Below are positions 20,312 through 51,874 of a stretch of 64,000 nucleotides of DNA, piece after piece. Source of the stretch: Nemertoderma westbladi (lineage: Eukaryota; Animalia; Xenacoelomorpha). Location: NCBI GenBank assembly GCA_032718475.1, contig JAUCBJ010007452.1, positions 32,079-96,078 of the forward strand, given 5' to 3'. How positions within the stretch are numbered: the stretch's first letter is position 1; each line of letters begins with the position of its first letter. The notes beneath the pieces are model-generated. The model was not told where the DNA came from and did not search any database. It saw nothing but the letters and a program-made list of their open reading frames with translations. A program made the translations under genes and the position numbers.

Positions 20312-20322
20312 ATAACTGTTAT
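20312..20322 (-). promoter_or_regulatory. Non-tRNA primer-binding site of A (ATAACAGTTAT), complementary to LTR segment 21058-21068
   Basis: No TGG after the LTR; the 11 nt abutting it are the exact complement of minus-strand ATAACTGTTAT inside the LTR. Confidence 0.65.
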
Positions 20323-21496
20323 TGTACGCGCTTTTGAAGACCTTTAGCAGTTTAACCTGCCAAAATTTATATGTCTTTTGGTTTATAAATAGACTTTAGA
20401 AATTGACAAATATTTAATACCAATAAACACAACATTAGCAGAAGCCAGCATCCATTCACCCGCTGGATATACCCGGGAGACTGGATTCTGAGGGCTTAGA
20501 TTATTATTGCAGTGTAAGCTTACTGTATTATTCGATTGATCGTTAATAAATAATTTCTGACTAATATTATTCACTTTCGGGAAATATTAACAGTTCCTTT
20601 AGGACGTGACCCTCTATCTAGGTAAACAGAGATATGACTTGTACTAAACACAACGGTAAGTCGGTGAGGCTTATGATTCACGTATGAGGCGCATTCTTTA
20701 GGAAATGCTTAGTTATCAGTCACAATCATGCACACTACCGGTAACACACAAGACTGCTCACTAATTTGCCGACCATCAATGAATTTTATCATATATAAAG
20801 AGAACAGCAACTGACTCATGTAGTGCTTATCAAATAGCATTAAATTCACTACAAACCACAATAATATAAGTCGCAATCGCTATATGTAACCCGTCTCTCT
20901 AACCTGTAGTGTATCAAGAAAATTGGGAAATTTGGGTTCTTTATAGATGTTCTCCAGATAATAATATTCAACCATAACATAACAGTAAATAGCAGTATAA
21001 TAATGTATGTTGCAGTGATATAAGACTACTGCTGATTGCACTGATTGTACTGGACCGATAACAGTTATACGCTCTATAATCTAAGCCTACTAATGTTTCT
21101 TCTAAAGTCTGAAACGAATTGACTCTAGAGCCGGTGTTCCTGGCCTAGATAGAAACAACACAACAGTATCAAGAAAAAACAGTAAGACTGAACACTCCTA
21201 GCACGATCGGCCAAATATCTCCACATCGACAGAAAAAATCGCTCTGATTGGCTGTTAAGCTAAACAAAGAACCATGTGTCCAATGGCCGTTTCCATGTCA
21301 GCAACCAGCTGTTAGATGTCGTAATCTGAATCATCAAGGCTACGCTGTGCCAGGGTATTTGACGCATTGCGGGTTTTTTGCCTTACCATGTCCGCCAAAG
21401 CACACATATAGAAGAATGACTTTTATGTCCGTTAAAACACCTATAACGGTACCTTGCGGGCGAGGGGGACTGATTATATCTGCAAAAGCTTTTACA
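20323..21496 (-). repeat. 5' LTR of element A (1174 bp)
   Basis: Direct repeat of 9593-10775 with TG..CA ends, followed by TSD GTATA. Confidence 0.95.
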
Positions 21497-21801
21497 GTAT
21501 AGCTGTATCATCATTATCAATATTTACATACGGCCTAAGGCAAATCGAGCAATTTCGAGAAAAGAACTAGATGATGATGATGAGCTCGATCATGGTTTCG
21601 AATCCTAGGGGCTTTTTAATTGTGATTGGAGATGTCAACCAGCCGAAATTGAACTACTTAGACTCCCTTAATTTAGTGAATATGATTGATGAACCCACTT
21701 TCACTTTCACTCGCTCAGAATCTCAGTTGGATGTCGCTTACGTCACTGCAGCATCCCCTTACAAATGTTTAATAATTGCTCCTATTGGTAACTCAGACCA
21801 T
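21497..21801 (+). pseudogene. LINE fragment 2: C-terminal APE endonuclease (frameshift in the GAT microsatellite)
   Basis: IINIYIRP...LIVIGDVN...PTFTFTR..QLDVAY...IGNSDH; GDxN, LD and SDH APE motifs. Confidence 0.9.
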
Positions 21802-22386
21802 TGTGACGGGATCCGAGAATCCCGGTTTATCCGTTAGCTTTCCTACGCGTCTCCACCGTGCGTGTGTGAAAAGAGTTTTAGTTGTTGACTGATCGGTGTG
21901 TATAAATAAGAAGGTATAATATAACTGAATAGGATATAGCACAGTTGACACAGTTGATTGATGATTAAGTGTACTGGTAAATAGAATGACAATACTGCAG
22001 TACACGGAAACGGAGATGGTGGAAAGAGTCCCGGTACCGCCCTAACTAACTGACTTACTAAAGTGAATGAATATACACAAAGACCGGTAATATATTGCAC
22101 GGTTGGCCACGTTGCATTACTCAGTCGATGCTTGCCCCCCATTGGCTGATAACTCATTTCTCACCCTCCCATTTCCCTGGGTGTGTTTCCCCCTGTCGCT
22201 ATTACTCTCTCCCTCCTGGAGGTGTAACCTCTGACCCCCGCTGTGTGTGTTCCCTTGGGGTTTGTTGCCCCGCTTATTGGGGTGATACAAGGTTGATTGG
22301 TAATCAACCTTGTAGTTCCAATATTGCTTAAACCTCCTGCCCTCCCAACTTTGTGTGGGGTGGTTGGCGGAATTGATACGCTAACA
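21802..22386 (-). repeat. 3' LTR of element B (585 bp); poly-G PPT abuts at 22387-22400
   Basis: tgtgacggg...gctaaca; about 8 substitutions and one 6-nt indel versus the 5' LTR, counted by eye. Confidence 0.95.
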
Positions 22387-23041
22387 CCCCCCCCCCCCCC
22401 ATGCTATCTTCCTGGTGAGAAGATAGCATCCACCTATAGTGCGCTACAATTCCGCTGGATCCCGATCTATTATCGAGTGTGGGGTGGAACTATTTTTTCT
22501 CGGAGCCGGCTTTCCAGACCGCCCCCTATGGGTATGATATCGCTACCCTGTTTACCTGGCGTCCCGTGTCGGGCCGATCGTGCGCTCCTCTCACACGACT
22601 TTTGTTTCCCCAACACTTTCACCACTAACTCTACTCTGTTCTCACCCTGACTCTCCTCTACTTCTCCTCACTTCCGCTCTAACTCTCGGACCTTCCCATC
22701 CCTCACTCAGCCTCTTATTCCTCCCCCCCCCACACTTGAATTGCCTATCTCACTCACTCACTCCCGACGAGTCTCACCCCCCTCCCGTGCCGTCGCACTC
22801 AAGAAGTGTGAAGTCGTCCAGCGTCCCGTTTGTCATAGTCAATCGTCCCCCAGTCCCAGTAGCTAATTGGAGAAAGGTTGAATGACTATAGTACTTTCTT
22901 CAATTATATTTTGCTAAACTAATAATGATTACTACGTACGTACCTACTAATTGCACTTTTCAATTATTTAAATTACTTGAATTTGTACTTAGGAGTTCGC
23001 ACGTCTCGGGTGGTGCCTTCCAGGCATGTTACACCGAAGTC

Positions 23042-23461
23042 TTAGTTCGTTCCACCAGCCTTTGGGAACCACCTCAAGTCTTTCCCTCTGTCGTCCTCCT
23101 CCCTAGGTCGTTTCCTGGTCACTGCCGCTCCTTTGATCTTGTCTGCTTTCTGGCTTCGGACCCTCGCCGCCACCTCCTTACTGATCCCGGTCGTCGACTC
23201 CTTGGGTGCTGGTGTTATTAGCTCCCGGTATCGCTTCATGGGTTGCCCCTCCGAGTGGCCCTGTTGTCTCCCCCTGGTGGCGTCCCATAGGATAATTTTC
23301 ATTGCCCGCGGCACATGCTCCGCCAAGAAATCCCTGAACTCTCCTCTGTTCTGTGGCGTCCACCTGTCCAAATACCTCTGCGTATTTATCACTCCGGCAT
23401 ACGACGCCGCCGTCGCCACTTCCTGGTAGGTAAACGGAAGCCTCCGTTTGATAATCTCCAT
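23042..23461 (-). CDS. Element B accessory ORF, probable frameshifted C-terminal continuation of the exonuclease ORF; function unknown
   Basis: 139-aa open frame overlapping the end of the 444-aa ORF on the same strand. Confidence 0.4.
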   Translation of the reverse strand: MEIIKRRLPFTYQEVATAASYAGVINTQRYLDRWTPQNRGEFRDFLAEHVPRAMKIILWDATRGRQQGHSEGQPMKRYRELITPAPKESTTGISKEVAARVRSQKADKIKGAAVTRKRPREEDDRGKDLRWFPKAGGTN

Positions 23462-24723: not shown

Positions 24724-25429
24724 GTTGTCCAGCGACGCGTGCCGTAGGTCCCGACCAGCCGCTGTTCGTGCACCTCCCCGAAATGGTCCTGTAGCGCTCG
24801 CGCTGCGTGACCTCTCTCTAACCGCTCGTAGTATCCCCTCGTCTTCTCTTCCGGATGCCTCTTGGTGAAATCCACTAGTATTTCTTTTCCTCCTGACTCC
24901 GCCTTTCTCTTCCTGATCAGTTTTCCCGCCATCCCGAACTCTCTCACTCGCTCACCTGTAAGGTGGTGCCTTACCAAGGCGCAGTACAGATGAGTGATAA
25001 GGTTAAGATGGTCTGTACAGTTCGACAATGGCCTAATTCCTATTTACTTTTGAGTTATAGCCTAACTTTGTTTCTGAAACTGTCAAGTTACAATAAATAA
25101 ATCTAAATTACAATTTTGTCCGTTACTTTAATTATGTTCCAGAATTTACTTTCTACTGTTACCATAATTTGTTAATTTTCTAATTTCTTATTTATTTTTA
25201 ATATTTTAATTTAATTCAATCCTACTACTGTGTTACTACTTACTATTGCCAATGGATTACTCTATTTCATAATCCACGTTCTGGCCTACTCTGTGGGCTT
25301 GTGCAGTACAACAGTATGCGTCGTGTGGCCTACACGATTTATCCAGCTGTACTCATATGCCCCCCTCTCGCTACTCACTACTAACTGATACCTACATTAT
25401 ACATACCCTTCTACCACTAACTCTTACTA

Positions 25430-25580
25430 TCCGGTACTAAGTACCCTCTTACTAACTCTAACTCCGCTAACTAACTAACCGGTACTATGTACCCTCTTAC
25501 TAACTCTAACTCCACTAACTAACTAACCGGTACTACGTACCCTCTTACTAACTCTAACTCCGCTAACTAACTAACCAGTA
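25430..25580. repeat. 48-bp tandem repeat x3 between integrase and accessory ORF of B
   Basis: ccggtactaNgtaccctcttactaactctaactccgctaactaactaa. Confidence 0.85.
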
Positions 25581-25607
25581 CTACAGCCTACTACAGCCTA
25601 CAGACTA

Positions 25608-28600
25608 CTATTTGCCTACAGCCCTTCTATAGGTCTTTCTATCTTTCGCTCCTATCTTCCCACCTATCCGCACTTCTACCGATCGGACTCTTCCGTCCTC
25701 GTCGGAGTAAGTGCCCACAACTCTCGCCAACCGCCATTGGTTGTTGATGATGGTATCGTCTGTGACGATCACCAGATCACCCTCCTTTAGCTCTCTGTTC
25801 GTGATCCTCCACTTGCTTCTCCTATGGAGCATGGGTAGGTATTCCTCGACCCACCTTCTCCAGTACTCTGCGCTTATCGCTTTAGCGACTTTCCAACTCT
25901 GTCGGGAGTGTATATCGTCTGGGTCTACACCCCGCATGTCGATGGTCGCTGGCCTCTCCATTAGAAAGTGACTAGGCGTCAACACGTCTAATGACTCCGG
26001 GTCATCATTTTCTGGATATAGCGGTCTGCTATTAATGATACCCTCGCACTTTGCTAGTACCGTCCTTAGTACGTCCTCTGCAACCATGTGGGTGTTCATC
26101 AATTTCGTCATCAGACGCTTGGAACTACCCACTAGTCTCTCGATGCCTTCCAAGAGTATGCGGAGCATACGGCGTCCTCCTCTCCCACTTCACCTGTCGT
26201 CTTCTCATGGCTGCCCTGACTTCTTCCCCTTCCAGGATATCCAAGGCATCCGCCATCTCGTTCTCCGCCCCCACAAAGTTGGTTCTGCTGTCAGAATATA
26301 TTACTGCACTCGTCCCACCTTTGCGGTCTCTGAACCTTTCTAGAGCATTAATGAATGCTGATGCGGTTGCATCTTGGGCGAGTTCTATCCCTACCGCCTG
26401 TGTGTTGTTACATACGAAGATGATGCCGTAGCGCTTCTCCGTGTGCCGCATCACCTTAATTTTTATCGGCCCGAACATATCCACACCGCAATGCGTAAAT
26501 GGCGGGTCGTGCTGTCTTACTCTACTGGCCGGTAGTGGCGCCATCTCCTGTATAGCTCGCTCCTTCTTAGCTCGTCGGCAGGTCTGGCACTGCCCCACTA
26601 CCGCCTTTACATTCTTTCTCAACTGTCTGACCCAAAAGGTCCTTCGTATCTCTGTGAGGGTTCGGTTGGTGCCCCCGTGCAATATCGACTTATGGGAGTC
26701 CCAGATGATCTGATAGACTATCGGTGATCCATTGGGGATGATGATGAGCTTCGGTGGGATGACAATGCTGTTGTTTTTCAACACCCTAGAGTTCATTACT
26801 AGGATCCCGTCATCATTGAGTTGTGGTGACAGTGTGATCAGCTCGCTGTCCCGTCGGAGATGCTGTTGTTTACCGACGCGTTCCACCTCGTCGCCGTAAT
26901 TCTTCCTTTGTTCGTAGCGGATGACGGCTTTAGCCGTCCCCTCCAGATCGACGGTTATTCTACCCTTTGTATCTCTACCGATTCCCCTAAGGAAGTCCCC
27001 GAAGGCTCTCCAGTACGCCACTAACGTCTTGGTCTTATACCAACTAGAGCTGTAGCTAAGGAGTTTGTCCGTTGGGATATCGCACAGTTCTTCCGGTTTC
27101 GGTTGCACGTCCCTTATCTCTCTCACCATCTGGCTGTATATCTCCTCACCTTCTGAATCTACTCCCTCCTCCTCTAACGCTACTTGTTCTGCGCCCGGGT
27201 CCACCTTTCTCATCGGCGGCCAGGCTGTCCTATCATTAAGAAATTGCGGCCCATGCTGCCACAATACTTCCTTCTTCAAGAAAGTGTGGCGTGCCACGCC
27301 CCTCAATAACAAGTCCGCTGGGTTCTCGTCCATTGGGCAGTAGTGCCACCTTCCTAACTCTGTAATTGCCCTTATTTCGTCCACCCTATTTGCGACGAAT
27401 ATAGGGTATCTCGTCCTTTCGTTGTGTAGCCAACCGAGCACTACCATGGAATCCGTCCAGTAGTGTGTTTCCACTATGTTGGGAATAGCGTCCACTAAGT
27501 AGGCTGTGGCCCTAACTCCTAATCTCACAGCTGTCAACTCGAGTTTCGGAACTGATGCTGAATCTGGTGGCGTCGACTTCGCTTTACTGGAATGCGAGTC
27601 TGGGCTTGTGAGCCCCCTCTCGCTGTACTAAGTAGAGTGCCGCTCCGTATGCCTCTAATGACGCATCGGAGAACATATGTAAATCCAGATTCGTCATGTT
27701 CCCGTCCGGGAAATATGCACGTGGCATGCTGTATGTTCCCTTCTGCTCTAAACTCTCTGTCCACTTGCTCCATTGCTTGCTAATCTCTTCCGGGACCTCT
27801 GTGTCCCACTCGTCCTTTAAATTGTATACTCTCTTGAGTATCTGTTTCCCCGTGACTAGTAATGGGGATGCTAGGCCTAGGGGATCATATATCCTTGCTA
27901 TGTACGACACATAGCCCCTCTTTGTGTGGATACCTGCGCCCTCCTGACTCAACTGGTATTTTAACTCGTCTGTCTCTCGGTTCCACACGATTCCTAGTGC
28001 CTTCTGCTGGGACTCCACTCTCTTGTTCGCCATGTCCTGTCCCTTGGCTGTCGTGGGATTATCCATGGTCGATTCTGGCCTCCTGTCCTCTATGGCTTTC
28101 ATCAACTCTTGCGAGCTGGATTGGAACTTGGTTAGGTTGAACCCGGATCCTTTTAGGATGTCGCGAACCTCGCGCCCCGTGTCCAGTAGTTCCTTAACCG
28201 TATTTCCAGACTCCATCCCGTCGTCTACATAGAAACCTCATCGAATCATATCAACGGCTTTGGCGCTGAACTTATTCTCCTTCCCTTCTACCGTGTCTCT
28301 TACGGCCATAGTCTTTGTAAATGAAGACGACTTGGCTCCCATGTTCTGTACTATCATCTTATCCATTGGTATGGTCGACGGTTCCTCAATCCGTTCCTGA
28401 ATCTGAGTAGGACCTCGATCCCTGAGTTGTAGATGTTGGGACCCTCCAGCAGATAATGGTTTAGGCATTTTCCATTGGTCTTGGCCGATGCGTCAACTAC
28501 CATCCGCAGTTTACCTTTCTTCGGGTCTAGAGCCACGTGGAGTGGCAGGTAATATGTCCTGTCCGTGTTTGGTTCATCGACCGGTAACTCCACGGCCCAT

Positions 28601-30014
28601 CCTTTCTCGACATACTTTCTAATTGTCTTGTGAATGTACTCATTCTTCTCGGGGCTCCGTTTTAGCGTCTGCTTCAACTTACGAAGCCTCGTGAGTACCA
28701 TTCCTTTGTTGTCGGGTAACGGTAGCTTCGGTAGCTTCCATACCATTCCTATGGTATACCGCCCCTCATCGCATGTCATCGATTCCTTTACACTTTGTAG
28801 AGCCTGCTTGTCTTCTACCGAGGTTCCGACCCCGGTCTCCTTTAATCCCTCAAAATCCTGCCTGAGCAGTCTCCTGAGCTGCTCCTCCGCTCCCTCATCT
28901 CCCATTTCTCGCATAGTTCCCGCAAACATGCATCCTGATGTCTCCGACATCCTAAATGGTATCTTACTCCTGATTGGGCCACTCAGCATCCACCCGAATG
29001 GTGTTAATATCGCCACCGGGTCACACTGCCTGTCTTCGCCGAAGACCGTTCGCATTCTCTCGTGGGCCGTCGGGCAGTCCATTCCTACTATGATGGATAC
29101 CTTCCTGACGTCCACCTCTGGGATTGAGAAGTCGATACTGTCCAGGAATCTATATTGTTCGACCTCGATGTTGGTTGGCCGCCTGGCGTTAATATTTATC
29201 GACTCTATTACCTGGATGGGGTCGATGGTCGCCCCATAGTCGCATCCCGGTGCTATCGCTGCTATCGCGCACCGTCCGGTCCTCATCTCCAGAACCTCAT
29301 CTTTGCTGGAGATGGTTGTTACCGCCATTCTACTTGGCCTCATCCTCAATCCTATCTCTTCGGCCACCCAATCCTCAACTAAGGTGAAGGCTGCACCACT
29401 GTCGACCAGCATCAGTGTGGTTACTGATCGATTGCCTTCCCCGATTACCCTTACTGGTACTACCCCCAATAGTACCGTTCCTCTCTTCCTTGCCGCTACG
29501 GTGCTCGCTGCCATTGTCTGTCCTTTGCTCTGACCAAACTTAATTGGCGTTTCTTTGCATTGGTTGGCTCTATGTCCACTCATCACACATCGCGAGCAGA
29601 TTTAATTTCTTCTCGCGTATTCTACCTGATCTTCCCTAGGTAGTGCTTGCCAATACCTGCAGTTCATGGTCTGATGAAGCGCATTTGTATGTAGTTGGCA
29701 TTTGCTCTTTGGGTTGTAGCCATCCTTATAAAGTGCGTTGCATATCGCACTTATATTTGTACCAAAGTCCCTACTATTCTTATTGTTTGGGTTCGGCCTA
29801 CTGGGCGTGCTGGGGTTATGTTTATTTGTGTTGTTATTTTTCCCCTGTCCGCTCCATGATGTGGTCTTACCCCCGGCTACTTGTGGACTGGTAGTCCCCT
29901 GCGTTGCTGCGTACGGCAGTGACTGTCTGAGCTTTGGCAATGCGTTCGACGCGTTGTGCTCTGGTTTCGGCCTGTGGTAATCGGTCTTTGGTCCCTCTCC
30001 CAGGCTATCCTCGC
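25608..30014 (-). pseudogene. Element B Gag C-terminus and pol (PR-RT-RH-IN), with frameshifts, stops and an RT deletion
   Basis: Knuckles CQLHTNALHQTMNC and CSRCVMSGHRANQC; PR LVDSGA; RT FYVDDG, but the segment after FRNG that carries the first catalytic Asp is missing; RH FSDAS, WTDS, NPAD; IN GVDMFGP, YSDS, ERLVG. Confidence 0.92.
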
Positions 30015-32234
30015 TGTTGTGTCCTCTACGGTAGGGACTACCCTACAGCCTACAAATCTACCAATACGAAGCTATAGAATATCTCTATCCGTAAAGTCCA
30101 GTAGCATACCGCTTACCAGATCCTAGTAACGATGTATCTTACTATGAGACTCTAGTAATGAAACGGGCTCGTACAGTATCTGACAACAAATCCCAGTCCA
30201 GGATATCTAAACAAACAGATACAATACACAAACTACTACTGGCGAGGAGCAGAGCCTGGCGTCTATTCTATGTACGTGGGCGGGTCTAATGCCTACGTAC
30301 TAGACAAAAGGATACCTGTCCTCTAACCGGTATGGCAGATGTACAGTTACAGTAACAGACCAAACTCACGGGAAAACAATCCCCGCGCAGCGAATCCTAA
30401 CTATCGCTGACAGTCCTAAATACAGTAACTTGCCGCGGTGTGATTTATATGGTTTATATACGAGCTAAGTGGGTTACAGACCTAGCGTTACAATACTGAT
30501 CTCAGTCCTTAATCAGTCTAAAGGGGGTCGTGCCTAATGTAACAATACTGTTGAGCAGAAAACAACAGTTTAATAACGAAAATGAAATACTCCTTCTCAT
30601 GCCGTAACTAAATATCTGATCCTAATTTTACAAATACCGAAAGTACGATAAATATACCTTGCCTAAAGTGATCTAAAGTACGCTATAACTAGTAGGAACT
30701 CTAAGGGTAAATATGTTTTAGGGCGTGTGTGTGTGGGTGTGTTACAATAAAACAATTTTGGTGTATATCTTTTCACTAGGTTTTAGTGATTTTCTGACCG
30801 AAATGATACCGTGCGCTAGCTACTAAAATGAACTAGTCGCGTTTTGTAGAACTTTATACTCACAAATGACGTCAAAGCTCTCTCCTTCCTATCCACAACT
30901 CAAGGGGCAACCACGGTGTTAGTAACTACACCCGTGATCGGCACTAATACCAGATTCTGGTTGTAAGATAAGAAATAGGGGTTAGTCGCTACCGTACGTT
31001 AGCTGATCTGGTATACAAATTTGATTCTAGAACTTTGTTGCCGCGGTAGTTAGCAGCAATACCTATCAGTACGTGGCAAGGCGCGGTAGGATATTAATAA
31101 AAACCTCCCTAGGCCAAGCGATGTGCCGGTAGCAGAAATACTCCTTGCCTGATCAAATAACTAACTTCAGGCAGGGGGGGGGGGGGGTACTAATGTATGT
31201 TCTACAGAGCGAACCGGTACCAAACAGTCAGTACTACAAATCACTAAATTATGGAACATATGCTGTCCGTACCTAATATGTACTTGCGTACTGACGAACG
31301 GCAATAGCTCGCAATACCTGTGAGGTATACAGGTAACCCGGGGATTTGCAGGACTGACAAAGGGGTTTCTGCCTAAATATAATTATTTGATCCTAAATTT
31401 TGCGGCGTCCAGGACGGCGTCACGCTTACCCTGATCTATAGGTCTTACGGCGGGCAAGGGCGTCGAACAAAGTCTTACCTTCCTCATAAAGCGGGCGCTG
31501 CATGGCAAGTGGAGTATTTCGAAGGGCGAAGGGGGTGTGCGGTCAAATCCAATGTGGGCGCTAGCGTGTTGTGGACATCTTTCCCCTGCGTTGCTGACGG
31601 CCTAACGGTCTAGGCTGCCATCTTCCCGATGTTTGGCTGTCCCAAAGTTGGACCAAAAGAAAACATGTTCAGGAGTTTGCAGTGTATTTACAGTTTAGCA
31701 AAAGATTTATCAAACAGAATTACAATAGTTTCAACAAGAAACCAACAAAGTATAACGAAATGATTAGTGCAACTAGTGCAGCAAGTAAGCAAGTAGAAGT
31801 ATGTGTGTGTGATAACCGAAAGCAAACCAGCCCTTTATATACTAAATCTGGGACATAGAATTCACTAGAACCTTCGAGAGTATTCGATGGCCTCACATTG
31901 GAGCAATAAGATATTCCATGCCCTATGATTGGCCCAACTCATCGTTCGATACGTTGTACGCACCTCATTGGCTTACCAATCTGTACCAAATGAAAATAAA
32001 TGGCCCCAAAATACAAATTTCCCGACCGGGATTCGAACTCGTAACCTATCTGTAATGTAACCAACGCCTTAACCATCTGACCACTACGCCACGAGAGTAA
32101 CTAGAGGTTTTATGTATACAAATATGAATAGGCATATTACATTACTGTAACTTAATCAAAATGCGTCGGATTTTCGAAAGTTTTTACGTTAAAGTTAAAC
32201 TACAAATGCTATCTTATAGTGAAATAATTCATCA
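30015..32234 (-). repeat. 3' LTR of element C (2220 bp); PPT-like TGGAGCGG abuts at 32235-32242
   Basis: tgttgtgtcc...ttcatca, direct repeat of 45126-47346. Confidence 0.96.
32021..32090 (-). other. tRNA-derived Pol III promoter module (A and B boxes) in U3 of the C 3' LTR
   Basis: TGGTCAGATGG ... GAGTTCGAATCC at tRNA spacing; acceptor stem does not pair; TTTT follows shortly downstream. Confidence 0.7.
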
Positions 32235-37260: not shown

Positions 37261-37284
37261 TGGGTCCTTTAATGGAGTGTCTAG

Positions 37285-37680
37285 TAGACAGTCTGGTGAA
37301 GCGTCCGGTGAACAGTCTGGTGAGACGTCTGGTGAGACATAGCGCGGAACTTCCAGCGAAATGTCCTGTCATCGGTCCCAAGGTCTGTCTGGCGTAACTT
37401 CTGTCAGAAAGTCTGGTCCAAAGTCTGGTGGACAGTCTGTCGAGATGTCTGGTGGAAAGTCTGGTGAGACGTCCGGTAGACAATCTGTCGAGAGTTCCAT
37501 AAAACAATCTGGCGAACAATCCGGAGAACAATCTGGTGTCGCTTCTGGTGAATAATCTGGCGAATAATCTGGTGAACAATCCGGCGTAACGTCTGGTGAA
37601 ATCTCCCGCGGAACATCCGGCGAAAGATTCGTACAAGCGTCTGGTCGAGTGTCTGGTGAGACGTCTGGCGTAATGTCAGG
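37285..37680 (-). repeat. 12-bp coding repeat (PDxS)n between RNase H and integrase of C
   Basis: tctggtgaNacN units encode SPDCSPDYSPE... Confidence 0.85.
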
Positions 37681-40600: not shown

Positions 40601-42021
40601 GCGTATATACGCTTGCTCCCTCGGGTTCCGGTAATCTTTATAGGAATCACGCTAAACCCTTTCAATTGGTTCTGTCTGAGGAGCGTTATCGATGGCTGTT
40701 CCTCACCCGCATGCACGTAAAAAGTGTCGTCTTCCTCCTCGTCCTCGTCCGATGATCCTGACTGATCCATACAGTCTGCATAAAAGGTACGGATCTCGCG
40801 CGGCGCACGCTCCTTATAAAGCGAGTCGCATCTAGCCGCTTTATCTGGATGCTCTCGTCGAAAGCGTTTGGTCGGAGTATGACTGGTTGTGTGGAGCAAC
40901 GCGTCATGGTTACGTCCACACTGAGGACATGTATCGTCGCTCGGGCAATCCTTCCGGACGTGTCCTGGCTTCATACATCTCCAGCAGGAATCTAACGATC
41001 GAATTTGGAGTCTCCTTTCTTCAATCCCTAACTCCTTAAAAGCGCGACATCCATGAAGTTTATGTCCGCTATGGTTTCTGCCGTTCCGCTCGCAGTATGA
41101 GCATCCCGCAAAGTCCGCCGGCAACTGTTGTCGTGGCTGCGTGGTGCCGATAGGCGTCAGAACTTTAGAAGTTTCAGTAGGGGTGGCGTAGGTAACGGCT
41201 TTCGCGTTCGTCGGAAACGGTTTAGTCCGATTCGGCGCAGAAATAGCTATCCCTTCCGCCGCGATATGGTGATCGGTATAGTTCGATCGAGTCTCGATCA
41301 CGGCCTCCCGTGAAATCAGTTGATAGACGTCGGTGAGTTTTAAAAGCCCGCCGGCCTCTTCACCCTGGTACTCGATGCGTCGCCATTCTTGTCGTAGTCG
41401 ATGATGAAGTCGACCGATTATCCTGATGAGAACCGTCGGTGCGTTAGCGTACTCGAGTTGTCCAATGGACCGTAAAGTCCCTATAGCGTTCTTGATTTCG
41501 TCCGCGAGTCGTAGAAGATCGATCGGTTTCGAAATGCTGCCTCCTTTACAGAGGTCTTCGATAATGGATTTAGCCATGGCGACGTTACCTCCGTAAATCG
41601 AATATAAACGGTCGTACGCTAACTCAAAGGCATCGGGAACACCAATGAAGGTTTCCGCTAATCGTTTCGGCTCACCAGACAGGACTAGGAGCAAGTAATT
41701 AAACTTCTCCGTCGAGGTGAAAGCACACTTAGCGATCTGGGACTCTACGTAGTCTACCAATGTACGCCAGTGTTTCGCGTTGCCAGAGAACTTCGGCGGT
41801 TGCTGTGCCGGTAATCCGTGTCTAGCCGCGAATTTCGCAATCTCGCTAACCAAATCCAACTGTCCGCGTCCCTGTTCGGTGGCGTCGTCCAGTCGCTCCC
41901 TTCCGCGCGTTGTTCGTCGGTAGGAATTATTTACGGGATCTTCTTCTCGATGTGTCGGAGTCTGTCTAGTCTCCTGTTCTCTCCTTGGTGGTCGATGTTG
42001 TTCAGGTTGTTCTAACTCCAC
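37369..42021 (-). CDS. Element C Gag-PR-RT-RNase H polyprotein (1550 aa)
   Basis: PPKFSGNAKHW; knuckles CSYC..H..C, CWRCMKPGHVRKDC, CPQCGRNHDALLH; AILDSASS; TCDVEAMFHQV; LYVDDG; FSDASK; WTDA; NPADIASRG. Confidence 0.95.
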   Translation of the reverse strand: MELEQPEQHRPPRREQETRQTPTHREEDPVNNSYRRTTRGRERLDDATEQGRGQLDLVSEIAKFAARHGLPAQQPPKFSGNAKHWRTLVDYVESQIAKCAFTSTEKFNYLLLVLSGEPKRLAETFIGVPDAFELAYDRLYSIYGGNVAMAKSIIEDLCKGGSISKPIDLLRLADEIKNAIGTLRSIGQLEYANAPTVLIRIIGRLHHRLRQEWRRIEYQGEEAGGLLKLTDVYQLISREAVIETRSNYTDHHIAAEGIAISAPNRTKPFPTNAKAVTYATPTETSKVLTPIGTTQPRQQLPADFAGCSYCERNGRNHSGHKLHGCRAFKELGIEERRLQIRSLDSCWRCMKPGHVRKDCPSDDTCPQCGRNHDALLHTTSHTPTKRFRREHPDKAARCDSLYKERAPREIRTFYADCMDQSGSSDEDEEEDDTFYVHAGEEQPSITLLRQNQLKGFSVIPIKITGTRGSKRIYAILDSASSHSYVDEQVADVVTDMSQGKTAQYTVSSMHGKRAIPLTRVKLTLDTLLSKAEHSKEERSLLPVRNLTFAATKDFSNLLGPVPEQSPEDRKYFRHLGIPECPVNYRSIAMLIGTDQFNLHQVWETRPSVITAGNPYACRTPIGWYTRAPIRSLEVSDQEDDVLSTCSLLTTMIDNSPSHSRGPIVRTALRQTCVANADATATDVTDLDMTTRTSDLQLLAVNQVVLTTEDQRVVAVDDSMNEDFGRLASLPKNPKVIDPTHQASTPVVDLGRLASLPIDQEVVKPPHDDSTPTSDTGRLASLPDALTLATAADEDVDEDHGAVQAALDRLLTERTIQWLEQDSAEPGSYETAMSEQEKRSLNIMRDTIRQTANGHYEVGMLWRNGQPKLVNNYPLALRRLKSIRQRLLRDETAHMQYNAQPQTYLQKGYAIRMLNPEVTTDQTYYLPHHFVRHPDKPGKVRVVNDCAALYQGMSMNSELMDGPNMNNYRMGVLMRFRQRKVAFTCDVEAMFHQVKALERDRDSLRFLWYPDGNLELPPETYQMQVRVFGARDSPNCTMYALKQTALDRQDQFDPEVVRTVERDLYVDDGLKSCDTLERATTAAHQLQDCLAEGGFHLTKVASNEPELVNSFDPMDRSGGDLDLDLEPLPTTKVLGLSWDPNTDNFRVRVRSNDQTRPLTKRTCLSTMSRLYDPLCFISPVILHARIILRSIWQAGLEWDDPIPEKLAERWRDWEAQLTFIQDYTIPRVYFPLQTTFPAELELHSFSDASKDGLGVTLYLRRQVTSDSYDVSLVTSKARTMPLKYMTVPRGELQAGTISTDIVSLVQRELEANLKVTYWTDATLVLWYINNKAFEFKTFVANRRAEILDRSLKQDWRHCPGKLNPADIASRGMQPLDFCKPDNKSFWFRGPDFLQRPSDEWPPLFDATTNTIPEGAEIKIDKVVKSKAKANAKVKRKQGRTKSDDLDARPDITPDVSPDTRPDACTNLSPDVPREISPDVTPDCSPDYSPDYSPEATPDCSPDCSPDCFMELSTDCLPDVSPDFPPDISTDCPPDFGPDFLTEVTPDRPWDR

Positions 42022-42093
42022 GCTGGTTCGTGATCGATCCGACGGTTGCGCTTCGAGTCGCTCTTCTATCTGAGCTAGTCGGTCCGTTACAGG

Positions 42094-44167
42094 TCAAATT
42101 ATTTCGGCGAGTCTGTTGGTCCTGATCGCTTCCGCTGGTTGCAACGTGGGTTTCTGTTGGGGTGTTTCTCGAGGTGGATTGTCGATGTATGGATTCGTCG
42201 ATCTCTCCTCCCGTTTGTAATCCACTGCCGCTGCCGCTCCAGTACGGAATATTTCCCGTTCCGTCGACTCCGAGTCGCTAGATGAGTCGCTGTCGTCCGG
42301 ATAAGGTGGTTGGCGGGTTCGCATCCGGCGTATTATTCTTGGTCGAGTTCGTTGTGGTCTGGGATCTATGGCTCTCCATTGTTCGGCAGGCTCGCAAGCC
42401 TTCCACGAAGTCGTAGGTCTCGTTGAACTCGGTTCGATCCTGTGGGTACTACCCACATCCATCCTCTTCCGTTGTTCGGTAGGCTCGCAAGCCTTCCACG
42501 AAGTCGTAGGTCTCGATAAACATTGGGTGAGAGGTCTTGTAAAAACATCGGAGTTAAGTGCTACTGTAGGTTTATAAATGACTGGGTTCGGGCAGCACGT
42601 CACAGGTTTAACTTGTAATGGTTTACTCACCTGTTTTACTGTCATAAACGCAGGTTCGTCTCTCTCTACAAGTAAACTACGACTTACTGTAGGTGGACTA
42701 GTTATGTTACCTGCTAAAATTGGCGATGAAGTCGCCCTAGGTTGCGGTATTTCCGTCACAATAAACCTACTACCTTGCGTCGAGCGCACAGGCGTTATTT
42801 CCTTAGGTATCGTAACAAAGACCGGTTTTATCGGAGTCGTGGGTTTGAGCATAGGAATAACTTGGGGAAAACGTTTACAGTAATCCTCGACGAACTCCTC
42901 TCCTCGATCTATCGCTCCCACACTTCCTTCCTCGATTCGCTTCTGAATTCCGCGATATCGAGTTTCCATGCGATCCAGGGCAGACAAGTCGTGTCCAGCT
43001 CGAGACCTTATAGATCTATCTCTCGCATCGAGTTTGAGGTCCTCTTGCGCGTTCGCCGCCTTGCGCGATCTGCGATTTAGTTCGAACTGGAGCTGCATCT
43101 CCCTTTCGCGTTGATCTGCTTCCTTTTAGTGTACCGCTAACTCCGCTTCCTGTATAGCTAAACGAGCGTTTATTTGTCGCGCCTCTAACGTGGCACTAGC
43201 GTCGGATGCTGCTACATCCTTTCGCTACATCCTCTCTGCGCTGTTTTTCTCCTTCGATGGCGATCTGTGCCATCTGTCGTTGCGCTTCTTCCTCGACGAC
43301 TTGTTGTCGGCGTGCGACCTCCTGTTGTTGTCGAATAATTCCAGACGCTGTTCTACTAACGTTGCCAACGTCGCCAACGTCGCTCTGTACGCTAACGAAC
43401 GATCTATCCAGTGGTGGAATTTGGTAGGCTCGCGAGCCTTCCGTAGATAGAACTTCTGTCGTCCCTCTCGGTACAACTTCCGGTTCTTCGATCGGTACTC
43501 CGCATCTACGAAGAAAATTGGTGAGCGTCCCTAACCTCCCGTCCAGACAGTATAGTTCTTCTTCCTCTTCGGGTTGTAACAACGCGTCCGAAATTGACTC
43601 ACCTAACAGTTGGTCGAGTTGTTCTTGCTGAGTCGATCCTACAACCGACTTAAACTGAATGAGGCTTTCCCTCGCAATTACCAACTTATCGATTATCTTT
43701 ACCTGAGTAAAGTTGTCGCCACGCAACTCTGCAAGTTCGTGTAAACCTTTAAGTTTATCTATGGAAGCATGTACCCTACTTTCTATCCTTACCTGTAAGG
43801 CATAGAACTCGTATCTCGACATCGGGGCGGTTAACTCACGTAAAAGGCGAAAACCTTCTCCGAAGTTTTGAGTAATCTGGGCCATGTGTCCTCCTATACT
43901 CCTAATAACATTCTCCTGGCTTCCAGTCGAACTTACCATGTCCGGTTCCCGCGATCTGGTCTGCGGGACGGTAAGGAAATCTTCGATTCTGCCGTCGCCA
44001 CGCGTTGCGGCTTCTGGTATTTCCGTTCGGGGTACCGGCGACGCACGCGGTGTGACATCGGTAGAATCTCGGGTTCTCCTTCTCGGTTCGTCTACTGTCG
44101 ATCTGTCTGGGTCGCACGAGTCATAGTCGGTAGGGGGGTATCGAGTCGAATGGGGTGTGTCACTCAT
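42094..44167 (-). pseudogene. Element C Gag N-terminal region, broken by a small tandem duplication, a stop and a frameshift
   Basis: ORFs 43196-44167 and 42094-43098; duplicated aggatgtagc near 43205-43235 shifts the frame; coiled-coil E/R-rich segments. Confidence 0.75.
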
Positions 44168-45115: not shown

Positions 45116-45125
45116 TATACCTCAC
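45116..45125 (-). promoter_or_regulatory. Non-tRNA primer-binding site of C (GTGAGGTATA), complementary to LTR segment 46431-46440
   Basis: No TGG; the 10 nt abutting the LTR exactly complement minus-strand TATACCTCAC in the LTR. Confidence 0.7.
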
Positions 45126-46945
45126 TGTTGTGTCCTCTACGGTAGGGACTACCCTACAGCCTACAAATCTACCAATACGAAGCTATAGAATATCTCTATC
45201 CGTAAAGTCCAGTAGCATACCGCTTACCAGATCCTAGTAACGATGTATCTTACTATGAGACTCTAGTAATGAAACGGGCTCGTACAGTATCTGACAACAA
45301 ATCCCAGTCCAGGATATCTAAACAAACAGATACAATACACAAACTACTACTGGCGAGGAGCAGAGCCTGGCGTCTATTCTATGTACGTGGGCGGGTCTAA
45401 TGCCTACGTACTAGACAAAAGGATACCTGTCCTCTAACCGGTATGGCAGATGTACAGTTACAGTAACAGACCAAACTCACGGGAAAACAATCCCCGCGCA
45501 GCGAATCCTAACTATTGCTGACAGTCCTAAATACAGTAACTTGCCGCGGTGTGATTTATATGGTTTATATACGAGCTAAGTGGGTTACAGACCTAGCGTT
45601 ACAATACTGATCTCAGTCCTTAATCAGTCTAAAGGGGGTCGTGCCTAATGTAACAATACTGTTGAGCAGAAAACAACAGTTTAATAACGAAAATGAAATA
45701 CTCCTTCTCATGCCGTAACTAAATATCTGATCCTAATTTTACAAATACCGAAAGTACGATAAATATACCTTGCCTAAAGTGATCTAAAGTACGCTATAAC
45801 TAGTAGGAACTCTAAGGGTAAATATGTTTTAGGGCGTGTGTGTGTGGGTGTGTTACAATAAAACAATTTTGGTGTATATCTTTTCACTAGGTTTTAGTGA
45901 TTTTCTGACCGAAATGATACCGTGCGCTAGCTACTAAAATGAACTAGTCGCGTTTTGTAGAACTTTATACTCACAAATGACGTCAAAGCTCTCTCCTTCC
46001 TATCCACAACTCAAGGGGCAACCACGGTGTTAGTAACTACACCCGTGATCGGCACTAATACCAGATTCTGGTTGTAAGATAAGAAATAGGGGTTAGTCGC
46101 TACCGTACGTTAGCTGATCTGGTATACAAATTTGATTCTAGAACTTTGTTGCCGCGGTAGTTAGCAGCAATACCTATCAGTACGTGGCAAGGCGCGGTAG
46201 GATATTAATAAAAACCTCCCTAGGCCAAGCGATGTGCCGGTAGCAGAAATACTCCTTGCCTGATCAAATAACTAACTTCAGGCAGGGGGGGGGGGGGGTA
46301 CTAATGTATGTTCTACAGAGCGAACCGGTACCAAACAGTCAGTACTACAAATCACTAAATTATGGAACATATGCTGTCCGTACCTAATATGTACTTGCGT
46401 ACTGACGAACGGCAATAGCTCGCAATACCTGTGAGGTATACAGGTAACCCGGGGATTTGCAGGACTGACAAAGGGGTTTCTGCCTAAATATAATTATTTG
46501 ATCCTAAATTTTGCGGCGTCCCAGGACGGCGTCACGCTTACCCTGATCTATAGGTCTTACGGCGGGCAAGGGCGTCGAACAAAGTCTTACCTTCCTCATA
46601 AAGCGGGCGCTGCATGGCAAGTGGAGTATTTCGAAGGGCGAAGGGGGTGCGCGGTCAAATCCAATGTGGGCGCTAGCGTGTTGTGGACATCTTTCCCCTG
46701 CATTGCTGACGGCCTAACGGTCTAGGCTGCCATCTTCCCGATGTTTGGCTGTCCCAAAGTTGGACCAAAAGAAAACATGTTCAGGAGTTTGCAGTGTATT
46801 TACAGTTTAGCAAAAGATTTATCAAACAGAATTACAATAGTTTCAACAAGAAACCAACAAAGTATAACGAAATGATTAGTGCAACTAGTGCAGCAAGTAA
46901 GCAAGTAGAAGTATGTGTGTGTGATAACCGAAGGCAAACCAGCCC

Positions 46946-47085
46946 TTTATATACTAAATCTGGGACATAGAATTCACTAGAACCTTCGAGAGTATTTGAT
47001 GGCCTCACATTGGAGCAATAAGATATTCCATGCCCTATGATTGGCCCAACTCATCGTTCGATACGTTGTACGCACCTCATTGGCT
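46946..47085 (-). promoter_or_regulatory. Probable Pol II promoter in the C 5' LTR (TATATAAA plus upstream CCAAT boxes)
   Basis: TATATAAA on minus at 46946-46953; attgg (CCAAT on minus) at ~47009, ~47040 and ~47079. Confidence 0.55.
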
Positions 47086-47132
47086 TACCAATCTGTACCA
47101 AATGAAAATAAATGGCCCCAAAATACAAATTT

Positions 47133-47202
47133 CCCGACCGGGATTCGAACTCGTAACCTATCTGTAATGTAACCAACGCCTTAACCATCTGACCACTACG
47201 CC
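47133..47202 (-). other. tRNA-derived Pol III module, copy in the C 5' LTR
   Basis: Same sequence as 32021-32090. Confidence 0.7.
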
Positions 47203-47346
47203 ACGAGAGTAACTAGAGGTTTTATGTATACAAATATGAATAGGCATATTACATTACTGTAACTTAATCAAAATGCGTCGGATTTTCGAGAGTTTTTACG
47301 TTAAAGTTAAACTACAAATGCTATCTTATAGTGAAATAATTCATCA

Positions 47347-50300
47347 CTCGCTATAGACTGGGTCCGTTATAAGTTCAGCTTCATAGTTTAAGAAGCTTGA
47401 CATCTCTTCTAAACCCGGTTCCGCACCCTTCTTATCTCGAGTGGAGAAAGCAATTTTTCTCCACTTATTGCGCAGCCAAATCGGTAGTGCCTGCGCTATC
47501 GTAGTGATGTTGTTGGACGCATTGAGTTCGTATGGCGCTTCCAGCGTCTTTAGCACGATTAGCGCCTTCTCGACTTTGTTAGCGAATGTCTTTATGCTAA
47601 CGGGGCCATCCTGTAGGCCACCCGATGTTATACCTCTCAGGGTCTGCCGGATGATCTTGGCCGGGTGCCCGTATTCCTTGTCTAACGCCCGCCATGCCGT
47701 CGTGAAGCCACCCTCGATGCCCTTGTATTGCCTCACGATGTCGTATGCTGGGCCCCCTGTATATACTTGCAGATACTTTAGGCACTCCGCCTGCATCAAA
47801 TTCTTTGTTAATATTTCGTTACTATACATGCGCCGAAACTGTAGGTATTCTTCCGGCCTACTTCCATCGAATTTGAATGGTTCCACGGGTGGTAACTCGA
47901 TCCTGGTCTTTAATGCATCGATTAACGTGGCCATCATCCCCATCGCTTGCGCTTCCAATGGGTTCGATAGATGCTGCATAGGTTCTCCCGTGGGTGCGGT
48001 CCGTTCGTCCTGTCTGCCGCTTTCCTCTGACTTGGATATATCATAGGGGGTAGCGGCCCCCTCCATATTTCTGTGTCGCACGATCTATTCTCGTCCAAGG
48101 GGTTCGATGTTCTTACTCCTATTGGGGTATATTGTTGATATTGTGATGGGGAAATGTCACCCTGTCCCCCCCCCCCCCCCCACCGGTATGCTTGGTACTG
48201 GGGTTGATGTTAATATATTGGGGCCCATACACCTATCCGCAATAATTCTCCCCTCCCCTGGGTATATGTTATGTCCTTGCATGCTGTAGTCATACTGCTG
48301 TGCTGGTACCGGTATAGGCCTATCTACTTCTGGCCTACCTGCCGGTATATACTCCGTGACTTCCGGGTTTAATCCCGTTGTTTGCGCTATCCTATCGCCT
48401 ATATTATCTCTCTCAGCATGGCCTATGGTATGTGCAGTAAGGCCTACAGTATGTCCTGCAGTCTGTATGTGTCGCTCGGGATCAAAGTTTATCCTTCTCG
48501 AATAATCCTCCCCGCGGCTACCATATTCTCGATCGGTAGGTATATCCCGTCGGGAAGTTTCTCTTCGACCCCCTCTACTGCTCTCGTCCTCGTGCCGGTA
48601 CGTCCTGTACCTCTCTCTCTGTGCGTAATACGCCTCGTCAGGTCACGTTCCTCCGGGGCGATGGCAATCTCCCGAAGTTCGACCCCACTGACTCTCCGTC
48701 TCCACCTCTACTACCGACGGCTCGCTATCCGTCCTCGCTCTCCTGTCGTTCGTGGCGACACTTCTTCTACTCTCTTCCTTTCTTCTCTCTGTAGTGCAGT
48801 ATTCCCGCTCGTGAGATCTCTCGTCGACCTCCCGGTTAAACTCCACTGTTCTTCTTCCCTCTTCTGATTGGGCTCGACGCCTCGTCGCGGGCCCTCTCGC
48901 GACGTCAACCTGTCTCTCTCTGCTCGATCGCACGCCGCTGGGGATACTCGCAATCCCCTTACTACTCTCCATCGCCGGGTGCTGCGGTTCACCTAATTCG
49001 CCCCGCGCATTATCCGCCGACGCTTGTGGGACACTCTTTGCCCGCTCGCCGCTAATCTCTCGTTGTGGGGCTCCTGTAGCCCCCCCCCCCCCCCACTCGC
49101 CACATCTAACTTCACTATCTCTTACTTCGCTACTACACCCCTCTCTAGTCGACACATTAACCCTACTGCGGCTGGGTCTATTCACCCCCGCCTCTCCCTC
49201 TGCTACTGTGTGGCCTACCAGGCCCTCTACTTCCTGCCTACTAACTACGTGGCCTACCAGGCCCTCACTGGGTTGACTCAACCCCGCCACTTCCTGCCTA
49301 CTAACTACGTGGCCTACCAGGCCCTCGTCGGGTTGACTCAACCCGGTCACTTCCTGCCTACTAACTACGTGGCCTACCAGGCCCTCATCCGTCGGGCTGC
49401 CCGCGCCCGCCGCGTTTATATTAATAGCACCATTACTAGTATCGCCCGTTAGATCAATTAAATCCTCCAAATCAATTAAATTGTTTTGCACGCCTAAATT
49501 AGAAACGGAATTACTTTGTTCGTTCGAAATAAGATTATCTGAATTATTCTGCGTATTTATATTATTTGGATTATTTTGTAAATTTACATTATTTGAATTA
49601 TTTTGTAGATTTATATTACTTGAATTATTTGTATTTAAATTTAAATTACTACTACTAGGTAAAATATTTCCTGCAATGAAAGTTTGGTTAGAATTATCCA
49701 ATACGGTACTATTAATATTAACGTTATCTACTGTATTATTATTACCCCCCCCCCCCCCCCGCCCGTACGGTCACACCAGTCTTGGGTCTGTCGTGCGGTC
49801 CCTGTAAGTGAGGTATTAATAAATGTTTCCACAGCCCTTGGCTCCTCATAAATACTCGAGCCAGTCTCGCTCTCTGACAGCCCCATCTGCGCCAGTTCTA
49901 GTCGGCGTTTCTGTTTCGCCTGATACTGCATAAGCCCCTTTAGCCGGGCATGCATACCATCCCGCACACGTTTTCTCTCACTCTCCCTCTCTCTGCCCTC
50001 TCGTGAATTCTGATCGGCTAACTCTGCCTCTCTCGCAACTCTCTCCAGTCGTCTCGCCTCGCGCTCTTTTCGCTCGTTATCCGCACTCACCTCGCGCTCT
50101 TTACGTTCCGCCTCACGCTCTGCCTCGCGCTCTTTACGTTCCGCCTCACGCTCTGCCTCGCGCTCTTTACGTTCCGCCTCACGCTCTGCCTCACGCTCTT
50201 CTTGCTCCTTCCTTTCCATCCTCCCTATTTCCTCGCACTCCCTAAATCTTCTCGCAGCCCTCTCGGCCCTCTCTTTGTTCTCTCTAACCAGCTCTTTCTC

Positions 50301-51216
50301 CTGCTCTATTAATGCACTCTCTTCCTCTAACTGTCTCACTAATTCTCTCTGGTCTAGCGCCGCCAGATCGAGTTGGCATGCCAGATCTATTTCTCGCACC
50401 CGTTTTTCTTTTGCGGAGGATGTAGCGAACTTATTGGTTGCGACGGACTCCCCCCGCCTTCCCGTCCTGCTAACTTTCCCCCGCCTCCCGGAATTTTCCA
50501 CAACCGATGAGACCGAATCCTCGGGGTTAACCTCGGATTCGCCCTCCTGCGGTCTCCCCCAACCCACCAATTTTACTCCCCGGGCATCGACTAAGTATGG
50601 CCCTACGTACACTACGCTAGGTTTCATACCCCTACATTCCCATAGTTCAAACAGTTCGCTGGCCACCCCTCTCACTCTCTCATCGGCCAGTTCTCCCTGT
50701 CCAAAATGCATTAAGTAATCAAAGTGTCTGTTCGACTCACCTAATTGTTTCTTCAGCTTTACCTCGTCTACCTTCGCCCCTCCTTTGGCCTCTTTCAGTT
50801 GCTTTGGATTGCGGCGTAGGCTCGTCGGAGCCGGTCGCTGACCCCGACGTCCTCGTCGCCGACATCTCCTTTATCCCTCCGTGTCCAGCGTCGTACCGGC
50901 GGCCCCACCGTCGCCGTTCCGGTGGGCCGTCCGTCGCCCTCGGCCTGTGGCTGGCCGGCGACTTCGGCACGTCGACCGCCGCTGTGTGTCGACTCGTCTC
51001 TCTCCCCCCTCGACTCGTCTCTCCCTTCTCTCGACTCGTCTCTCCCTTCTCTCGACTCGCTCTCTCGTCTCGACGCTCTCTCTCCTCTTGGATTGCCGAA
51101 TCACCTATTATCGATGGATCCGGCGTCGTGGGTCTATACCGTCGCGTCGCGGCCTCGCGGATCGTTAGATCGCCGTCCGGGGTCCGCGGCGGTGTCGCTT
51201 CTCCTTCTCGACTCAT
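47347..51216 (-). pseudogene. Element B Gag N-terminal and capsid region (several stops and frameshifts)
   Basis: ATG at 51216; (EREAEREAERK)n coiled coil; capsid FKFDGSRPEEY..CLKYL..YGHP..LPIWLRNKW; continues at 30014 once C is removed. Confidence 0.85.
49205..49390. repeat. 60-bp tandem repeat with palindromes inside B gag
   Basis: Units contain gggttga-c-tcaaccc and ggcct-acc-aggcc; encode EGLVGHVVSRQEV. Confidence 0.8.
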
Positions 51217-51274
51217 CTTTACTTTACTTTAGTATAGATTGGTGGCTGGCAGTCACAGTAACAGGCAGCTTGGT

Positions 51275-51283
51275 TCTTTCCAC
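51275..51283 (-). promoter_or_regulatory. Primer-binding site of B (GTGGAAAGA), complementary to LTR segment 51501-51509
   Basis: The 9 nt abutting the LTR complement minus-strand TCTTTCCAC in the LTR; contains TGG, so a tRNA primer is not excluded. Confidence 0.55.
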
Positions 51284-51874
51284 TGTGATGGGATCCGAGA
51301 ATCCCGGTTTATCCGTTAGCTTTCCTACGCGTCTCCGCCATGCGTGTGTGAAAAGAGTTTTAGTTGTTGACTGATCGGTGTGTATAAATAAGAAGGTATA
51401 ATATAACTGAATAGGATATAGCACAGTTGGCACAGTTGATTGATGATTAAGTGTACCGGTAAATAGAATGACAATACTGCAGTACACGGAAACGGAGATG
51501 GTGGAAAGAGTCCCGGTCCCGGTACCGCCCTAACTAACTGACTTACTAAAGTGAATGAATATACACAAAGACCGGTAATATATTGCACGGTTGGCCACGT
51601 TGCCTTACTCAGTCGATGCTTGCCCCCCATTGGCTGATAACTCATTTCTCACCCTCCCATTTCCCTGGGTGTGTTTCCCCCTGTAGCTATTACTCTCTCC
51701 CTCCCGGAGGTGTAACCTCTGACCCCCGCTGTGTGTGTTCCCTTGGGGTTTGTTGCCCCGCTTATTGGGGTGATACAAGGTTGATTGGTAATCAACCTTG
51801 TAGTTCCAATATTGCTTAAACCTCCTGCCCTCCCAACTTTGTGTGGGGTGGTTGGCGGAATTGATACGCTAACA
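51284..51874 (-). repeat. 5' LTR of element B (591 bp)
   Basis: Direct repeat of 21802-22386, followed by TSD ACCAT. Confidence 0.95.

Follow-up and report, generated by a model that had tools for sequence, protein, structure and literature searches.

For the BEL/Pao retrotransposons (Belpaoviridae), the ICTV, the international committee for virus taxonomy, gives an 18-nt primer-binding site for tRNA-Arg or tRNA-Gly and long terminal repeats (LTRs) of 0.2-1.2 kb, and considers their replication poorly understood (PMC8742986). Elsewhere among LTR elements, as far as the accessible parts of the sources go, priming by the element's own RNA has been described for Tf1, Tf2, Tj1 and the Tf1/sushi group (PMC7175516, PMC4600332), the first 11 bases pairing in Tf1 and RNase H cutting between bases 11 and 12 (PMC7175516), and it has been predicted for Tcn1 (plant) and for the TAR lineage of copia elements (PMC6317226; also PMC3601003). 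The present work concerns three BEL/Pao elements, designated A, B and C, in a stretch of 64,000 nucleotides from Nemertoderma westbladi (Xenacoelomorpha; assembly GCA_032718475.1, contig JAUCBJ010007452.1, positions 32,079 to 96,078 of the forward strand), hereafter the window. In each element, the bases abutting the 5' LTR are the exact reverse complement of a segment within that element's own LTR. Judging from the sequence comparisons reported here, A, B and C probably belong to a BEL/Pao lineage that primes minus-strand DNA synthesis from its own RNA, by means of an LTR segment of 9-13 bases after which the RNA would be cut.

Pairing at the edge of the 5' LTR

The minus strand carries all three elements, C being nested within B, and each has an intact 5-bp target-site duplication and a polypurine tract. 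The LTRs, putative primer-binding sites and candidate self-primer segments are located in the window as follows:

20323..21496, minus strand: 5' LTR of A, 1174 bp, TG..CA
20312..20322, minus strand: primer-binding site of A, 11 nt, spacer 0, no TGG; first TGG 306 nt downstream
21058..21068, minus strand: candidate self-primer segment of A, LTR positions 429-439
9593..10775, minus strand: 3' LTR of A, 98.5% identical to the 5' LTR; segment copy at 10337-10347; polypurine tract ends at 10776
45126..47346, minus strand: 5' LTR of C, 2221 bp, TG..CA
45116..45125, minus strand: primer-binding site of C, 10 nt (12 with G-U), spacer 0, no TGG; first TGG 366 nt downstream
46431..46440, minus strand: candidate self-primer segment of C, LTR positions 907-916
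30015..32234, minus strand: 3' LTR of C, 99.7% identical to the 5' LTR; segment copy at 31320-31329
51284..51874, minus strand: 5' LTR of B, 591 bp, TG..CA
51275..51283, minus strand: primer-binding site of B, 9 nt, spacer 0; TGG at base 2, with the wrong base for tRNA position 61
51501..51509, minus strand: candidate self-primer segment of B, LTR positions 366-374
21802..22386, minus strand: 3' LTR of B, 97.6% identical to the 5' LTR; segment copy at 22019-22027; 6 nt missing just upstream of the segment

The three pairs named in the original prediction are all exact reverse complements, over 11 bases in A, 10 in C (growing to 12 pairs when G-U is allowed) and 9 in B. Every match begins at the first base past the CA of the LTR and drops to 4-5 bases when shifted one base into it, in line with the break of pairing noted at the first base of the LTR. 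The observed length was reached by 5 (A), 18 (C) and 16 (B) of 5000 dinucleotide-shuffled LTRs and, when the anchor was moved to any of 2870 other points within the initial 3 kb of each element, at a frequency of 0.0017 (A), 0.0014 (C) and 0.0014 (B); crossing each site with the LTRs of the other two elements gave 3-6 bases. The elements had also been called unrelated and their motifs said to share no sequence, and neither description stands as worded: the sites of B and C both start with GTG, the second-last base of the paired segment is A in all three elements, and the elements are divergent (23% protein identity between A and C over gag-protease, 30-36% between B and C over pol), yet B and C fall within one lineage in the tree presented below.

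Recurrence among relatives and dependence on splicing

A metagenome scan provided 79 loci, of which only those with a readable LTR and LTR end were scored. An independent set of 12 families was defined in which the LTR end was fixed by the repeat, without reference to pairing, and the tRNA-type class was assigned to TGG-led sites as judged from the element sequence (base at tRNA position 61). Of the nine independent relatives lacking a tRNA-type site, eight show a pairing of 10-13 bases with their own LTR, at a spacer of 0-4, each of these pairings being reached by 0-3 of 200 shuffles, whereas the three independent tRNA-type relatives, all TGG-led, pair over just 4-5 bases. The C at position 61 is invariant in tRNAs; it is present in these three tRNA-type relatives as well as in L032, L042 and L068 (in L074 at the second TGG), whereas reading the TGG of the B site in the same way gives A. 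Matches of at least 10 bases to the own LTR are found in 10 of 12 non-tRNA-type elements as against 5 of 210 crossed pairs, one of those five lying between related families. Two-sided changes separate sister families, at pair 5 in L078/L075 and at pair 11 in L035/L024. Two of the checks proposed with the original prediction came out in its favour: boundary-anchored matches recur with altered letters in distant families and are absent from tRNA-type relatives, and compensatory changes between families do exist.

A blind scan of 39 loci, which admitted only sites starting with GT or AT, found 7 loci with matches, compared with 10 matches in 114 shuffles; its match in L045, a palindrome inside the LTR, and that in L014, where no LTR end is defined, were dropped. 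Among six circular contigs, credible matches were found in L023, L031, L053 and L060, L042 is of the tRNA type, and L071 gave no match of at least 10 bases (9 by eye). A pattern search of viral contigs returned 35 matches and no relative.

The phylogeny was computed with IQ-TREE in quick mode under LG+G4, with a midpoint root and without bootstrap, on an alignment of 60 rows and 664 columns; 38 loci out of 79 and 20 proteins out of 239 went into it, near-duplicates and fragments being left out and A not being placed. A split with an SH-aLRT value of 99 divides the tree into two sets: one of 45 rows that contains B and C along with every one of the 23 self-pairing relatives, and one of 15 rows that contains every one of the 6 tRNA-type loci as well as six arthropod proteins. 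B groups with C as its sister (SH-aLRT 99), both on long branches. A single origin of self-pairing would be compatible with this topology.

In five of the eight independent self-pairing families, the match is present only once a GT-AG intron has been removed from the LTR (77-186 bases, longer in L045), and the pairing is therefore kept at the RNA level. In L019, one LTR copy has an acceptor at the junction point and the other has the continuous segment; exact intron loss is only inferred in this case because the donor is off the contig and the two copies, 88% alike, are possibly an assembly mix. In A, B and C the segment is continuous and intron-less, and no spliced match longer than the contiguous one was found in them. 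Donor and acceptor motifs, common in these LTRs, flank the segments of B and C and could place the segment inside an intron.

Regarding the letters of the segment, its 3' end has A as second-last base in 22 of 22 elements and C (20/22) or T (2/22) as last base, the other positions being variable. Five of these 22 elements came from the scan requiring GT or AT; among the 11 independent elements alone the counts are 11/11 for A and 10/11 for C. The motif A[AT]TAAA lies at most 70 bases downstream of the segment in 11/22 elements (3.0 expected) and upstream in 0/22, which places the segment inside R and led to its rejection as a poly(A) site. Upstream, an initiator-like motif occurs at -35 to -12 in 6/22 elements (2.4 expected, p 0.024); in 27 elements, initiator-like motifs were found at -14 to -33 in eight and TATA-like boxes at -29 to -54 in six, B and C included, both motifs being taken by their customary definitions. 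The TATA of L004, at -31, would set the RNA start at the segment itself, and the motifs of B and C suggest a start about 25 bases upstream of it. The promoter motifs concerned, each a motif match only, are:

46463..46492, minus strand: C, TATA-like box (-52) and initiator-like motif (-26), upstream of the segment
46946..46953, minus strand: C, canonical TATA box preceded by CCAAT boxes and lying 513 nt upstream of the segment; rival promoter
51536..51563, minus strand: B, TATA-like box (-54) and initiator-like motif (-30), upstream of the segment

At these elements' opposite end, the polypurine tracts of 18 loci terminate in GGAA in 6 of the 11 with a 2-4-base spacer and in none of the 7 without spacer, which suggests two kinds of cDNA end. 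In the window (tracts at 10776, 32235 and 22387 for A, C and B, respectively), A and C share the final 7 bases and the tract of B is a G run.

Candidate mechanism and rival explanations

Pairing, anchoring, covariation, splice dependence and exclusion from tRNA-type elements are direct observations at the sequence level, and the pairing is real, lineage-wide and very likely a tRNA-independent priming signal. The self-priming initially proposed draws its support from boundary-anchored pairing of this kind, and priming itself would proceed along the following lines. Transcription would begin 0-30 bases upstream of the segment, and the genomic RNA would supply the primer as its capped 5' fragment, in many cases preceded by a leader that stays unpaired. 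This piece would fold back, the LTR segment pairing directly past the 5' LTR, and the reverse transcriptase (RT)-RNase H of the element would, by analogy with Tf1, cut the RNA after the A-pyrimidine, giving a primer end at the LTR edge. Strand transfer would rely on whatever portion of R lies downstream of the cut. Strong-stop DNA would end at the cut, and therefore everything upstream, intron included, would be copied from the RNA of the 3' LTR; if that copy was spliced as well, the intron would be lost, which would yield elements of the kind seen in A, B and C.

As for the start site, the RNA would begin roughly 0-30 bases before the segment and not necessarily at it: chances appear evenly balanced for a short leader, a start at the segment itself is possible and somewhat less probable, and a start far upstream is not very likely. 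On a broader scale, it can tentatively be proposed, with a little less than even confidence, that a BEL/Pao lineage of marine animals swapped tRNA priming for an internal AC-ending primer, assembled by the spliceosome in intron-bearing families and hard-wired by intron loss in A, B and C, so that reverse transcription would depend on the spliceosome in some families and run constitutively in others.

Several results weigh against self-priming as formulated here. In a wide search (spacer 0-5, contiguous or spliced match), the pairing of C was matched by 36 of 200 shuffles, as against 2/200 for A and 2/200 for B (38, 9 and 6 of 300 for C, A and B in a second run), so that C alone is not significant there, because its LTR is 2.2 kb long. 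Among the relatives, the ninth independent one, L059, pairs over 7 bases under strict rules (122/200 shuffles) and over 12 only with one G-U, and eleven further families that pair over 10-14 bases, together with L061 (11), L072 (10) and L071 (9) by inspection, had their LTR ends chosen with the match in view, that is, they were picked on outcome and are therefore not independent. Single-domain FastTree trees recover the same split, with weak support for B and C joining the self-pairing group (0.585 and 0.299). A[AT]TAAA is not found within 70 bases of the segment in A, B or C (639 and 745 bases away, and none in B), and C has its stronger promoter, with CCAAT boxes and canonical TATA, 513 bases upstream of the segment. 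Duplex extension upstream of the segment does not exceed that of shuffles (92-863 of 1000), and no conserved U5 hairpin was found in 26 elements, the fold z-scores of the last 60 bases of U5 being -2.1 in A, -0.1 in C and 0.2 in B, without trend over the 26. When the RNA is made to start at the segment, the duplex is predicted at 0.95 in B, 0.58-0.85 in A and 0.71-0.98 in C; in whole-RNA folds with 25-30 upstream bases, it is nearly gone in A and B (0.001-0.008), and whole-RNA folds of L004 and L019 also give low values (0.0-0.13). Of seven relatives folded, five have the duplex at 0.73-0.94 and two below 0.1. Shuffled interiors also fold the B duplex at 0.75 and, because they do nearly as well, folding does not settle the start site. 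Lastly, the B site holds a TGG at base 2.

The poorly favoured cis duplex of A and B in the presence of a leader would fit a variant in which self-priming would start from R in its 3' copy or from a short LTR transcript made separately, with the 3' end formed by host cleavage or by exonuclease trimming to the duplex instead of by RT-RNase H. The segment is indeed present in both LTRs, and B carries an extra open reading frame (ORF) with 3'-5' exonuclease-like features, described below. This variant is nevertheless unlikely, since the segment is not a normal 3' end given that A[AT]TAAA stands downstream and never upstream, since that ORF is without counterpart in A and C and throughout the 79 loci, and since the conserved A-pyrimidine end would suit a defined cut better than trimming.

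The TGG of B, along with the 18-nt tRNA-Arg or tRNA-Gly site that ICTV gives for the family (PMC8742986) and with half-tRNA primers, which according to the accessible part of PMC6317226 require no TGG, would also agree with priming by a host RNA (tRNA 3' end, tRNA half, mitochondrial tRNA or small nuclear RNA), the LTR segment merely shielding the site or regulating packaging, dimerisation or translation. Judged from the element sequences, this is quite unlikely: no TGG occurs within 300 bases of the LTR in A or C, B does not have the base at tRNA position 61 that tRNA-type relatives have, and the latter do not pair with their LTR. Moreover, the sites of the 22 elements vary at all positions but the first two, each tracking its own LTR, which makes them too numerous for a single host primer.

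Fortuitous matching within AT-rich LTRs, or duplication of a palindrome in the case of A, is hardly credible in spite of the wide-search result for C and of the A site being an interrupted palindrome (for A alone, the complementarity therefore nearly amounts to a direct repeat carrying a single change), as pairing occurs in 3/3 window elements and 8/9 independent relatives and in no tRNA-type control; for the lineage as a whole, chance is refuted by the shuffles, the crossed pairs, these controls and the tree split.

If self-priming from the LTR segment is correct, it would have arisen in a third LTR superfamily and would mark a large branch of BEL/Pao. It would also account for primer sites missing from BEL/Pao annotation and provide a simple rule to find them. 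Such elements may be freed from tRNA supply and from silencing by tRNA fragments, and in the intron-built form the onset of reverse transcription would be coupled to host splicing.

The elements in the window and their comparison with described systems

The assignment of A, B and C to BEL/Pao holds on protein domains and on the tree. Gag DUF1759, the Pao RNase H Peptidase_A17, Integrase_H2C2 and DUF5641 are found in the elements, in the order protease-RT-RNase H-integrase and as a full set in B and C; DUF1759, Peptidase_A17 and DUF5641 confirm the identity given in the original prediction. The coding regions are:

13925..17695, minus strand: A gag-protease ORF (DUF1759), terminating in a short RNase H piece
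35410..43125, minus strand: C gag-pol, single frame with in-frame stops at 42094 and 37369; DUF1759, zf-CCHC, Peptidase_A17, Integrase_H2C2, DUF5641
47344..48084, minus strand: B gag piece (DUF1759), severed by the insertion of C
25608..29601, minus strand: B pol in four ORF pieces; protease, RT, Peptidase_A17, Integrase_H2C2, DUF5641

A is devoid of RT and integrase, holding only DUF1759, protease and the short RNase H piece, and would have been copied in trans or have lost its RT after insertion. Extra ORFs lie upstream of its 3' LTR (11153-12316, minus strand), one of which, of 249 codons, is Cys/His-rich with a weak zinc-knuckle match (E 0.016), and its leader contains a tandem array of about four 38-base units and a duplication of 290 bases (20080-20270 and 19341-19920). 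In C, the pol sequence has YVDD and the RNase H acidic motifs, and a long Asp/Pro/Ser-rich repeat insert lies between RNase H and integrase (37369-37700, minus strand). The extra ORF of B, 520 codons between integrase and 3' LTR (23389-24951, minus strand), resembles 3'-5' exonucleases over residues 60-370 (PF01612 set, 24/30 Atlas matches, score 0.93). A and C, the 79 loci, Pfam, PDB and a homologue search all came back without a match to it, and its single-sequence structure model was unusable (pLDDT 36.6).

The U3 of both C LTRs (47130-47209 and 32018-32097, minus strand) contains a tRNA-like stretch with A-box- and B-box-like motifs, recognised by eye; neither ARAGORN (default) nor Rfam called it, and its 3' end does not match the C site. 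Rfam found nothing real over the C LTR. ARAGORN reported no tRNA by default and, at a 70% threshold, 221 meaningless calls. The C. elegans element Cer7 is said to have an element-encoded tRNA-like primer, which a literature search did not confirm.

Immediately right of B, an RVT_1 ORF (51785-53917, plus strand) is probably part of a non-LTR element into which B inserted. Besides, the window contains tandem arrays at 1-2142 (unit of ~62 bases), 3422-4425 (~50) and 55701-59196 (~89), as well as an ORF at 62824-63411 (minus strand) with a weak C1-domain match (E 1.8e-4, below cut-off).

The best database relatives reach 46% identity for the RT-RNase H of C and 33-34% for the RNase H-integrase of B; the named best matches are echinoderm, cnidarian, hemichordate, crustacean and fish proteins, that is, mostly from marine invertebrates and fish. 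This host range fits the one given for the Sailor/Sinbad clade in the accessible part of PMC8220671, which is only a lead; on priming, the accessible parts of PMC8220671 and PMC12451622 add nothing. In the main text of the BEL/Pao surveys PMC554778, PMC3118150 and PMC6238403, so far as accessible, the words PBS and tRNA are absent, and their supplements may annotate primer sites. No published description of self-priming in BEL/Pao was found by a search whose reach mostly did not extend to subscription journals, Repbase Reports and GyDB pages.

Compared with tRNA-primed BEL/Pao elements (Semotivirus), A, B and C have the same domains in the same order, TG..CA LTRs, a 5-bp target-site duplication and a polypurine tract; in contrast, they have no 18-nt host-tRNA site, there being no nearby TGG in A and C and no suitable position-61 base in B, and the sampled tRNA-type elements stand across the tree split. 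This lack of a tRNA-type site is the point of the finding and not grounds against the family. In addition, the LTR of C (2.2 kb) exceeds the range given by ICTV, 0.2-1.2 kb (PMC8742986).

In the TAR lineage of Ty1/copia (Houba, Osr-1), self-priming is predicted from at least 10 complementary bases starting 0-5 past the LTR (PMC6317226, accessible part); A, C and the relatives have such a match, and B, with 9 bases, is one short. Unlike them, TAR elements are plant Pseudoviridae, and no intron-built primer is described in the part of PMC6317226 that is accessible.

With Tf1/Tf2/Tj1, the Tf1/sushi group and Tcn1, A, B and C share a short site (~11 bases) next to the 5' LTR that complements an LTR segment and not a tRNA, an RNase H cut having been proposed there (accessible parts of PMC7175516, PMC4600332 and PMC6317226). 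They differ from the Tf1/sushi elements, which are Metaviridae chromoviruses, in that they are Belpaoviridae, with BEL/Pao families and no chromodomain in Pfam, and in that many of their relatives build the segment across a splice junction. A possible further difference from Tf1 is that the segment of A, B and C may not be the first bases of the RNA. Tf1-type elements reportedly, going by the title of a reference, have an additional U5-leader stem beside the primer duplex, whereas no U5-leader extension was found in A, B, C and relatives. On this comparison, the best reading is that the mechanism of A, B and C would be Tf1-like, the elements themselves not being members of the Tf1 group.

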